Source: Escherichia coli (GTDB lineage: Bacteria; Pseudomonadota; Gammaproteobacteria; Enterobacterales; Enterobacteriaceae). From it: a stretch of DNA of 64,000 bases. Below the pieces are notes generated by a model. The model saw only the letters and a list, made by a program, of their open reading frames with translations, had not been told where the DNA came from and did no database searches. Both the position numbers and the translations under genes were made by a program. The stretch is from assembly GCF_029227855.1 (NCBI RefSeq), contig NZ_CP074356.1. The stretch is one strand, 5' to 3'. Below are positions 55,175 through 55,757 of the stretch, piece after piece (the first letter of the stretch is position 1; the number at the start of each line of letters is the position of its first letter).

Positions 55175-55519
55175 ATGACTCAAAACTATGAACTGATTGT
55201 GAAAGGGATCCGCAATTTTGAGAATAAAGTTACGGTAACTTTAGCATTACAGGACAAAGAACGCTTTGACGGTGAAATTTTTGACCTGGACATCTCGCTG
55301 GACCGTGTTGAAGGTGCTGCGCTGGAGTTTTATGAGGCAGCGGCCAGAAGGAGCATCAGACAGGTCTTCCTGGATGTCGCTGCCGGGTTATGTGAAGGGG
55401 ATGAGCAGTCGCCGGAAAAGCGCCCCGTAATTTTAGAGGCGCAGAATGTATGGATAACCTACAAAGGAAAGCTACCGGGAAGGATTACTGGTTCCCTGAA
55501 GACTCCGCCGAAATGGTAG
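55175..55519 (+). CDS. Hypothetical protein between holin and endolysin (possibly YdfR/DUF1327-like)
   Basis: 114-aa ORF starting 5 nt after holin stop; family assignment is from memory only. Confidence 0.5.
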   Translation: MTQNYELIVKGIRNFENKVTVTLALQDKERFDGEIFDLDISLDRVEGAALEFYEAAARRSIRQVFLDVAAGLCEGDEQSPEKRPVILEAQNVWITYKGKLPGRITGSLKTPPKW

Positions 55520-55757
55520 TTTTGCCAGCATAATTTTCTTCCAGCAATGCCGCCAGCCACTTGAAAGAATTTTGTTGTTCCTGGGACCATTTGGGGTTGC
55601 GTGATTCAAAATGAATGGATGCCAGCGTTGGCAGCATTTGCTCCCTGGGAATTGATAAGGCCAGATGTGAAAATGCAACAGTGAGGGCATTTACATCATC
55701 CCGAAGCCTGAAAATGCAGTCGAGCAACTCCTGTAGAGAAATGGTGCTATTGTCCAT
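55485..55757 (-). CDS. Hypothetical minus-strand ORF (90 aa) inside lysis cassette
   Basis: Track ORF convergent with and overlapping the 3' end of ORF 55175-55519; coding status uncertain. Confidence 0.3.
   Translation of the reverse strand: MDNSTISLQELLDCIFRLRDDVNALTVAFSHLALSIPREQMLPTLASIHFESRNPKWSQEQQNSFKWLAALLEENYAGKTTISAESSGNQ

Follow-up and report, generated by a model that had tools for sequence, protein, structure and literature searches.

A convergent pair of small genes between the holin and endolysin genes of an Escherichia coli lambdoid prophage as a probable mobile accessory cassette

The stretch of DNA analysed here, referred to below as the window, covers 64,000 nucleotides (nt) of Escherichia coli contig NZ_CP074356.1 (assembly GCF_029227855.1) in the context of a lambdoid prophage. 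Between the stop codon of the holin gene (S) at 55170 and the ATG of the endolysin gene (R) at 55863 lies a gap of 692 base pairs (bp) that holds two open reading frames (ORFs). The first, on the plus strand (55175..55519), encodes a protein of 114 amino acids (aa) from the YdfR/DUF1327 family. The second, here called orf90, lies on the minus strand (55485..55757), encodes 90 aa and converges on the first so that the two share 35 nt at their 3' ends (55485-55519). Both ORFs, their overlap and a gap of about 700 bp had been recorded in a preliminary description, which pointed out that convergent overlapping pairs can be toxin/antitoxin-like or can regulate lysis timing by antisense. We confirm the observation itself; its interpretation is only partly right. 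The gap is best explained, in our judgement with somewhat better than even confidence, as the site of two separate accessory genes that together make up a moron-type mobile cassette, which fills a hypervariable slot in a lysis cassette of the phage 21/Qin type with pinholin and signal-anchor-release (SAR) endolysin.

Taken singly, the two genes are common, already annotated ('YdfR family' and 'hypothetical') and mostly ordinary. What is modestly new is that they belong to a type of mobile cassette, convergent in layout and equipped with a conserved, structured leader, of which no description was found in Rfam, PHROGs, Pfam or the literature searched.

Identity and coding evidence of the two genes

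The plus-strand gene begins with ATG and specifies a short isoform of its family. Residues 1-112 of the product align with positions 1-92 of the 93 in the PF07041 (DUF1327) model at an independent E-value of 7.7e-44, and the protein also matches phrog_406 (E 2.7e-68). On a chromosome that is 100% identical in this region, RefSeq lists in order a class II holin, a YdfR family protein (WP_000193259.1), a hypothetical protein on the minus strand (WP_106475142.1) and the lysozyme rrrQ; a 1.65-kb stretch is shared at 100% identity by several chromosomes. The likeness to YdfR that had been proposed thus stands, and the suggested alignment with essQ-ydfR-rrrQ of the K-12 prophage Qin (YdfR P76160, PF07041) agrees in both gene order, class II holin followed by DUF1327 gene followed by lysozyme, and spacing. 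In the window the ydfR-like ATG at 55175 stands 4 nt past the holin stop codon TAA (55168-55170), exactly as in K-12 essQ-ydfR. Since a Shine-Dalgarno-like GGGGAGAG, read from the sequence at 55160..55167 on the plus strand, also lies within the 3' end of the holin gene, the ydfR-like gene is regarded as a late-operon gene coupled to the holin.

Aligned over residues 2-72, the window protein and K-12 YdfR are 85% identical. From about residue 73 their C-termini are unrelated: Qin YdfR ends at 103 aa with a stop codon that overlaps the rrrQ start, leaving neither a spacer nor a convergent ORF, whereas the window allele continues into a ...KGKLPGRITGSLKTPP tail that is followed by a 298-bp module carrying orf90. 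The window gene can accordingly be divided into an N-domain (codons 1-76, 55175-55402) and a tail (codons 77-114) ending in ...KGKLPGRITGSLKTPPKW. In an AlphaFold2 model, residues 1-76 form a three-stranded sheet and a long helix (predicted local distance difference test score, pLDDT, of 70-86), and the tail scores below 50. The N-domain is common to all DUF1327 proteins, which come in lengths of 103, 104, 114, 116, 176, 183, 196 and 211 aa. Most of them have the ...KGKLPGRITGSLKTPP tail in common and diverge past that point, with the stop codon placed two codons after TPP in the 114-aa protein, four codons after it in the 116-aa form, and a helical domain added past the common tail in the 176-211-aa forms. 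The 114-aa allele would then be short because its frame, on leaving the ...GSLKTPP tail, enters the neighbouring module and ends after 2 codons. The ratio of non-synonymous to synonymous substitution rates (dN/dS) for the gene is 0.41-0.44 (0.44 over 51 unique alleles), and sequence searches of NCBIfam, PADLOC and PDB gave no match for the protein.

Functional knowledge of the family comes from the K-12 member. Residues 1-72 of K-12 YdfR bind the N-terminal catalytic half of RNase E (residues 1-598) in two-hybrid and co-purification experiments, and the protein co-purifies with RNA; its overproduction causes no growth defect and changes few transcripts (Göpel et al. 2026, PMC13232886). The same report cites a genetic screen that ties ydfR to envelope integrity, and a literature search on the function of DUF1327 or of the protein accessions concerned found nothing beyond it. 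Given the likeness of the N-domains, it is reasonable to suppose that the N-domain of the window protein most likely also binds the catalytic half of RNase E, RNA, or both.

The minus-strand gene orf90 starts with ATG and belongs to family phrog_2411, which it matches over residues 1-90 of 90 (E 6.6e-54). Its product is acidic (isoelectric point 4.95), has no transmembrane segment and is modelled by AlphaFold2 as four helices (pLDDT 73). Searches of Pfam, NCBIfam, PADLOC and PDB gave no match, and none to a toxin/antitoxin or defence family. The length of the ORF alone falls within chance, given antisense ORFs of 88-95 codons close by, for example at 55934..56200(-) and 56339..56626(-). It is conservation that lifts orf90 above chance: an intact frame, codon-position bias, a low dN/dS, in-frame deletions and distant homologs. 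Of 80 loci on viral contigs, 79 keep the 273-nt frame unbroken; no indel occurs, and there is a single internal stop. Variable sites fall 17/18/41 on the three codon positions, a bias that persists outside the region under the mirror plus-strand ORF, and dN/dS is 0.31 over 28 distinct alleles, for comparison with 0.10 for the holin and 0.07 for the endolysin. Some alleles have lost 2-8 codons in frame. Against diverged stand-alone copies from a plasmid and an iha island, dN/dS drops to 0.18-0.23 at a proportion of synonymous differences (pS) of 0.57-0.65, that is, near saturation of synonymous divergence. The homology search that had been called for did find homologs, the sequence evolves as a coding one, and orf90 is a genuine protein-coding gene under purifying selection. 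The mirror frame on the plus strand is open in many alleles and interrupted by stops in about half of them. A 60-aa ORF on that strand (55615-55797) uses a frame that shares wobble positions with orf90, and is most likely its shadow and not a gene.

More distant relatives of orf90, 81-97 aa long and 24-40% identical, keep the motif ELLDxIxxLRxxVNxLxxAFSYLAFS...FES, also match phrog_2411, and come from Klebsiella, Atlantibacter, Sodalis and Yersinia. An exhaustive hidden Markov model profile search of 1.84 billion representatives gave 19 clusters only, these relatives among them, and a scan of one genome per species added a single locus, in Yersinia massiliensis. Within E. coli the module is frequent, being present in 1220 of 5426 complete genomes (22%), where it is always annotated as 'hypothetical protein'; among deposited phage genomes it occurs in 3 of 50,697.

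A hypervariable slot and related cassettes in other genomic positions

The edges of the orf90 module are sharp. A three-way alignment of loci with the 114-, 116- and 176-aa forms of the DUF1327 gene, together with a four-way alignment, delimits a 298-bp presence/absence module at 55511..55808. The flanks common to the three forms run up to ...CTGAAGACTCCNCCG (...LKTPP) and resume about 55-60 nt before the endolysin ATG. Between them, the slot contains about 22 nt in the 116-aa form, the 298-bp orf90 module, or a module of roughly 470 bp that comprises a DUF1327 C-terminal domain and a convergent 86-aa ORF (orf86). The GC content of the inserted DNA (0.451 over 55520-55796) is lower than that of the holin gene (0.542) and the endolysin gene (0.532).

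The occupants of the slot are distributed separately. All 83 orf90 loci (83/83) have the 114-aa form as partner gene and S and R as flanking genes. The very common 116-aa form has no convergent ORF, and the 176/211-aa forms carry orf86, a reverse ORF other than orf90. The latter arrangement, of the 933V/PhiR5_1 type, pairs a 176-211-aa DUF1327 gene with orf86 (phrog_2572) in the same slot and between the same flanks as in the window, with a 3' overlap of 53 nt, a homologous leader and a canonical terminator that lies inside the forward gene. It differs from the window in that the forward protein has a C-terminal helical domain, absent from the 114-aa form, and in that orf86 shows no homology to orf90 by BLASTP or hhalign. 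Selection on the reverse ORF is mildly purifying, with 0 stops in 13 alleles, a codon-position bias of 9/9/16 and a dN/dS of 0.5. Elsewhere in related loci, bor-type genes lie reversed just past Rz.

Cassettes of the same type recur outside the lysis region. Homologs of orf90 lie between tail genes M and L in Atlantibacter-type prophages, past tail gene I in Yersinia and upstream of the terminase genes in Klebsiella; each is oriented against the late genes and converges on, and overlaps, a small forward ORF. Other copies stand alone: in Sodalis, between dinI and bssS, on a plasmid with an adjacent autotransporter gene, and beside iha. The last two are intact homologs with 71-72% DNA identity (positions 2446-2718 of locus L150, from an E. 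coli XDL chromosome, beside iha; positions 3460-3729 of locus L149, from plasmid pBCE049-1), both surrounded by insertion sequence elements and adjoining adhesin or autotransporter virulence genes. More than 1000 contigs carry the 89-aa plasmid form, which one record names Ybl58; with the iha copy the terminator-like hairpin persists, along with a decayed remnant of the reading frame of the ydfR tail.

A further link among these cassettes is the DNA upstream of the reverse gene, of which about 110 nt can be aligned across orf90 homologs, the window and E. coli orf86. In leaders from outside E. coli, this segment folds into a 6-bp hairpin with an invariant loop, GGAUGGCUGAUUAA; compensatory changes affect 3 of the 6 pairs, 96.7% of alignment cells are paired, and 0 of 500 shuffles did as well. 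The leader has no match to an Rfam family. Its members are found at 3960-4003 in both L139 and L145, at 2888-2931 in L151, at 780-823 in L143 and in L231-L237, and the window counterpart occupies 55758-55862(-). A second hairpin lies further upstream, with the loop GUGGGA in Klebsiella and Atlantibacter. The window leader is alignable and degenerate at the loop: the invariant loop of the foreign leaders is absent at the locus, and elsewhere in the window only matches with 3 mismatches occur.

When viral contigs were scanned for the loop, the leader turned up before four more small ORFs of 79-99 aa, none related to another and each lying in reverse orientation in a lambda-like tail region, so that it precedes at least five unrelated ORF families. 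One of them, the 84-aa reverse ORF of L234, showed no relation to the orf90 family. At two of these tail loci the convergent forward partner is a stand-alone DUF1327 N-domain protein of 72 aa (phrog_2735), 38% identical to the window protein (E 1e-14); at others it is a coiled-coil protein. The forward partners of other genera were also considered as SlyX-like, on account of their coiled coil and ...PP.Y end and of SlyX being another RNase E binder, and this candidate was rejected for want of a Pfam SlyX match. What recurs, then, is a cassette of three parts with no tie to lysis: the leader and two small genes, one reverse and one forward and convergent with it, each of which can be swapped.

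The C-terminal peptides of the forward partners resemble one another, with RITGSLKTPP in E. coli and KITGSLFAP, RLTGDILIP and QIFGDLKKPP in Yersinia, Klebsiella and Atlantibacter collectively. Between E. coli and Yersinia, all differences in the ITGSL codons are synonymous. When 578 ORFs were searched with a DUF1327 tail profile, the partners from Yersinia and Atlantibacter ranked 1st and 3rd-6th with non-significant E-values of 0.24-1.7, a homolog search with the Yersinia partner ORF found only itself, and the motif is also present in DUF1327 forms that lack orf90. The shared tail is thus a lead for a functional link and not evidence of one.

Expression signals, proposed mechanism and competing explanations

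Several features suggest that orf90 is an autonomous unit. A Shine-Dalgarno sequence, AGAGGA, precedes its ATG (55757-55755) by 6 nt at 55764..55769 on the minus strand; GAGGA is kept in 14 of 14 upstream variants and distant homologs have an AGGA-type site at equal distance from the start. Past the stop codon by 42 nt, a GC-rich, 7-bp terminator-like hairpin (GCGCCUC-N9-GGGGCGC followed by UUUUCC, RNA fold z = -2.09) occupies 55414..55442 on the minus strand, antisense within the ydfR codons for EKRPVILEAQ. The stand-alone iha-island copy keeps an equivalent hairpin, GAGCGCCUC-N9-GAGGCGC-UUUGU, though its ydfR partner has decayed, and canonical terminators with a U-run follow both the Yersinia homolog (L151) and E. 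coli orf86 (L089), in each case buried in the forward partner. Upstream, a leader hairpin (CCCGGCCUG-UUGAAU-CAGGCGGGG, 55788..55811, minus strand), presumed to lie in the 5' untranslated region of orf90, aligns with 'hairpin 1' of the homologous leaders of other genera. A weak candidate sigma-70 promoter, TTTATC-17-TATGTT (55819..55847, minus strand, 7/12 matches in our own scan), ends 16 nt from the endolysin ATG, and the homologous leaders have a TATGTT or TATTGT hexamer at the equivalent place. Scans of the window region and four related loci against Rfam returned nothing relevant. The overlap itself is arranged so that the orf90 stop codon TAA is antisense to aTTAc, the Ile-Thr codons of the ITGSL motif in the ydfR tail, and this stop-to-IT register is repeated at the Yersinia locus L151.

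In the mechanism proposed here, the ydfR-like gene would be expressed together with the lysis genes from the Q-dependent, antiterminated late promoter transcript, and its soluble, cytoplasmic product would act late in infection on RNase E or RNA. By contrast, orf90, with its own leader, Shine-Dalgarno sequence and a terminator-like hairpin inside ydfR, would be on in the prophage state while the late operon is silent, and would be overrun by antiterminated late transcription after induction, by analogy with lambda bor. Expression in the lysogen is suggested by orientation, by leader conservation and by the example of reverse-oriented morons such as bor, and the conserved leader suggests that it is regulated. 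As a best guess, the orf90 protein could be an accessory factor that binds protein in the lysogen. The shared 3' ends are probably a by-product of the close fit between a reverse unit and a forward gene, and not a toxin/antitoxin or lysis-clock device.

Morons of the kind described by Hendrix are extra genes with their own promoter and terminator that sit between late genes, and lambda bor is a reverse-oriented example. The orf90 module resembles them as a sharp-edged presence/absence insertion between conserved late genes, of lower GC content, reversed to the late operon and equipped with its own Shine-Dalgarno sequence and terminator-like hairpin. It departs from them in that its promoter is a candidate only, in its convergent forward partner, and in its conserved hairpin leader of about 110 nt, which is also borne by cassettes with unrelated small ORFs. 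Moreover, the predicted product is soluble and cytoplasmic, as opposed to the membrane proteins or lipoproteins Bor, Lom and Cor.

Resemblance to toxin/antitoxin loci extends to two small adjacent genes on a mobile element and to the convergence itself: in par of pAD1, a type I system (par/Fst-like), convergent 3' ends overlap around a terminator as they do in the window pair. A type I system, however, combines a non-coding antisense RNA with a hydrophobic peptide, whereas the minus strand of the window evolves as a coding sequence, neither product is hydrophobic and no Rfam match was obtained. Type II systems are co-directional autoregulated operons with a growth-arresting toxin of a known family and strict co-occurrence of the two genes. 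The window genes are convergent, they have no toxin or antitoxin match in Pfam, NCBIfam or PADLOC, K-12 YdfR, the one protein assayed for toxicity, is non-toxic, and DUF1327 genes occur without orf90 (Qin, the 116-aa form) just as orf90 homologs occur without DUF1327. Regulators of the holin/antiholin or endolysin kind are membrane-spanning or exported, which is the case for neither window product.

Of the earlier claims about the pair, the idea of a unit seems to hold, as indicated by the 72-aa DUF1327 N-domain gene that faces a reverse gene behind a homologous leader; the toxin/antitoxin part is not supported, with each gene found without the other, harmless overproduction of YdfR and no toxin/antitoxin or defence family match. 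Antisense control of lysis timing fares no better, as cassettes of the same type lie between tail genes M and L or past I, where they cannot be timing lysis, and neither protein spans a membrane. Both readings are unsupported because Qin and the 116-aa form manage without a convergent ORF and because orf90 homologs persist without an intact partner on the plasmid and beside iha.

Variants of these ideas deserve to be weighed in their strongest form. An effector/antidote pair, in which a reverse protein made in the lysogen neutralises leaked forward protein that binds RNase E or RNA, or in which both form one complex, with the overlap allowing only one at a time, would account for the convergent architecture at unrelated genomic sites in several genera, for the tail cassette type with a DUF1327 N-domain partner, for the C-terminal motif common to forward partners of Yersinia, Klebsiella, Atlantibacter and E. 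coli with its synonymous ITGSL codons, and for the constant 114-aa partner of orf90. We nevertheless consider it unlikely: YdfR overproduction is non-toxic and alters few transcripts, most DUF1327 genes lack orf90, orf90 copies remain under purifying selection where the partner is decayed or absent, reverse genes behind the same leader come from non-homologous families and face equally unrelated forward partners, and neither the tail-motif profile nor the search for toxin/antitoxin and defence families gave a significant match. Antisense or transcriptional interference is quite unlikely. It would have minus-strand transcription start 16-45 nt from the endolysin ATG and run into ydfR and the holin gene, damping leaky S and R expression or tuning the timing of R. 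The candidate promoter does adjoin the start of R, the endolysin lacks an evident Shine-Dalgarno sequence and has a 5' untranslated region that is antisense to orf90, and besides the putative minus-strand terminator inside ydfR another weak terminator-like site lies in the holin gene (54996-54982). Yet homologous cassettes sit between tail genes with no lysis gene near, related prophages with the same holin and endolysin lack the module, the minus strand evolves as a protein, with wobble-biased substitutions and in-frame indels, and not as a non-coding RNA, and the 343-nt endolysin leader RNA antisense to orf90 is no more structured than shuffled sequences (z = +0.29).

It is very unlikely that one or both proteins are accessory lysis factors, standard cassette components that regulate the pinholin or the release of the SAR endolysin, even though thousands of E. 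coli genomes have the ydfR-like gene at this fixed place between S and R, in tight coupling to S, and even though the screen cited in PMC13232886 connects it to envelope integrity. Both proteins are acidic and soluble by hydropathy and by their AlphaFold2 models, without a transmembrane segment or signal peptide; their maximal 19-residue Kyte-Doolittle (KD) hydropathy is 0.69 (114-aa protein) and 0.85 (orf90), whereas the holin, the SAR domain and Rz1 reach 1.67-1.96. Tail or terminase regions and plasmids also harbour a DUF1327 N-domain homolog and members of the orf90 family, and the slot may hold alternative non-homologous contents or almost nothing. Least probable by far is a chance or shadow ORF on the minus strand. 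Antisense ORFs of like length nearby, the lack of a Pfam, NCBIfam or PDB match and of a clear promoter, frameshifts or stops in some alleles and a mirror frame open in many would fit such a view; but no plus-strand gene lies beneath most of orf90 to cast a shadow, dN/dS is 0.18-0.31, the frame is intact at 79 of 80 loci when stops interrupt the mirror frame in about half of the alleles, and in-frame deletions, a conserved Shine-Dalgarno sequence and homologs from other genera and contexts with identities as low as 24% all speak for a gene.

The explanation favoured here, two separate accessory genes in a jointly mobile cassette, also has points that weigh against it. Sigma-70 scans upstream of orf90 gave no convincing site, with a best score of 7-8/12 and no call under a stricter scan, and for this reason expression of orf90 in the lysogen can be put forward only as an inference. 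The terminator-like hairpin of orf90 has four U's only, was not called by a consensus terminator scan and sits in a region constrained by the protein sequence of ydfR. RNase E binding is known for the K-12 protein only, whose C-terminus is different and whose overproduction altered few transcripts. Fold searches with the AlphaFold2 models of the 114-aa protein and of orf90 found nothing specific. Finally, the similar tails of forward partners in four genera, together with the recurring DUF1327 partner, hint that the two genes may work together.

A broader and decidedly tentative proposal is that the window pair belongs to a family, as yet undescribed, of mobile cassettes, each of two convergent genes, that inhabit the late operons of lambdoid prophages across the Enterobacterales and whose two genes act as a state switch or an effector/antidote pair. 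In such a family, the leader would drive a swappable reverse gene for a helical protein (orf90, orf86, phrog_25136, phrog_25324 and others), while a forward DUF1327 or coiled-coil gene, often with an ITGSL..P-like tail, would overlap the terminator of the reverse gene. Lysogens might express the reverse gene, and cells late in the lytic cycle the forward gene, with mutual exclusion through convergent transcription, and the diversity of reverse genes might stem from an arms race over exclusion or anti-defence.

The lysis cassette around the slot and wider significance

The genes that flank the slot are those of a complete lysis cassette. The holin gene (54955..55170, plus strand) encodes a class II holin of the phage 21/Qin type, 71 aa in length (RefSeq WP_000372595.1, 'class II holin family protein'; phrog_9876 and phrog_20), with a transmembrane-like segment of KD 1.70; PF04971 is matched by the equivalent 71-aa neighbour in related loci. 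In dual-start holins the antiholin is told from the holin by an extra N-terminal charge. The dual-start motif of the window holin (54955-54972, plus strand) aligns as MDQMEK, with an acidic residue 2, against MKSMDK, with a basic residue 2, in K-12 EssQ, and given this difference in charge the window allele may behave differently from EssQ. About 40 nt before the holin start, a terminator-like hairpin with a T-run (54888-54916, plus strand) is presumably read through by Q-modified polymerase.

Downstream of the slot, the SAR endolysin gene (55863..56396, plus strand) encodes a 177-aa rrrQ-type lysozyme (RefSeq 'lysozyme' rrrQ; phrog_7 endolysin, E 4e-62) with a Gly/Ala-rich, weakly hydrophobic segment at its N-terminus, LSAAVLALIGAGASAPQIL (KD 1.67). 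No recognisable Shine-Dalgarno sequence precedes it within 55836-55865 on the plus strand (...CCTGATAAATATCCATG). The same stretch is kept in all slot variants, and its opposite strand is the leader and promoter region of the reverse gene. The cassette is closed by an Rz-type spanin gene (56695..57159, plus strand, from the ORF list; RefSeq 'lysis protein'; PF03245 and PF06085 on equivalents) with an embedded Rz1 lipoprotein ORF (56915-57097), whose signal and lipobox segment has a KD of 1.96. Endolysin and Rz genes abut in related loci and are separated in the window by 298 bp (56397-56694), which contain a strong 13-bp hairpin (56487-56519) with an A-run on one side and a T-run on the other, resembling a bidirectional terminator. 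In other relatives this gap holds small ORFs or genes of the KilA-N/Ant type.

Further afield, a 66-aa ORF of the DUF1737 type (phrog_2036), recorded as truncated in RefSeq, and a 53-aa hypothetical-protein ORF lie just before the holin gene (54447-54805, plus strand). Upstream of the lysis genes, a low-GC island (0.32-0.36) contains a 111-aa ORF (53863-54198, minus strand) that matches the IraM anti-adapter family above cut-off (NCBIfam PRK09919, E 7e-48); the identical sequence is annotated in RefSeq as an iraM pseudogene with an internal stop. Directly past the spanin genes, DUF1398 (ydfO-like) and YlcI/YnfO-family genes occupy 57467-58168 on the minus strand, an arrangement like that of K-12 Qin.

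The analysis supplies a late-phage setting for YdfR, recently reported as a binder of the RNase E catalytic half. A late gene that is coupled to the holin and touches the main RNA-decay enzyme of the host offers a testable idea on how lambdoid phages manage their late mRNA. The analysis also removes a tempting but unsupported annotation as a toxin/antitoxin system or lysis clock. Because it shifts among the S-R slot and tail operons across several genera, the cassette type provides a compact target for studying the role of small prophage 'hypotheticals' in late operons and in the switching between lysogeny and lytic growth.

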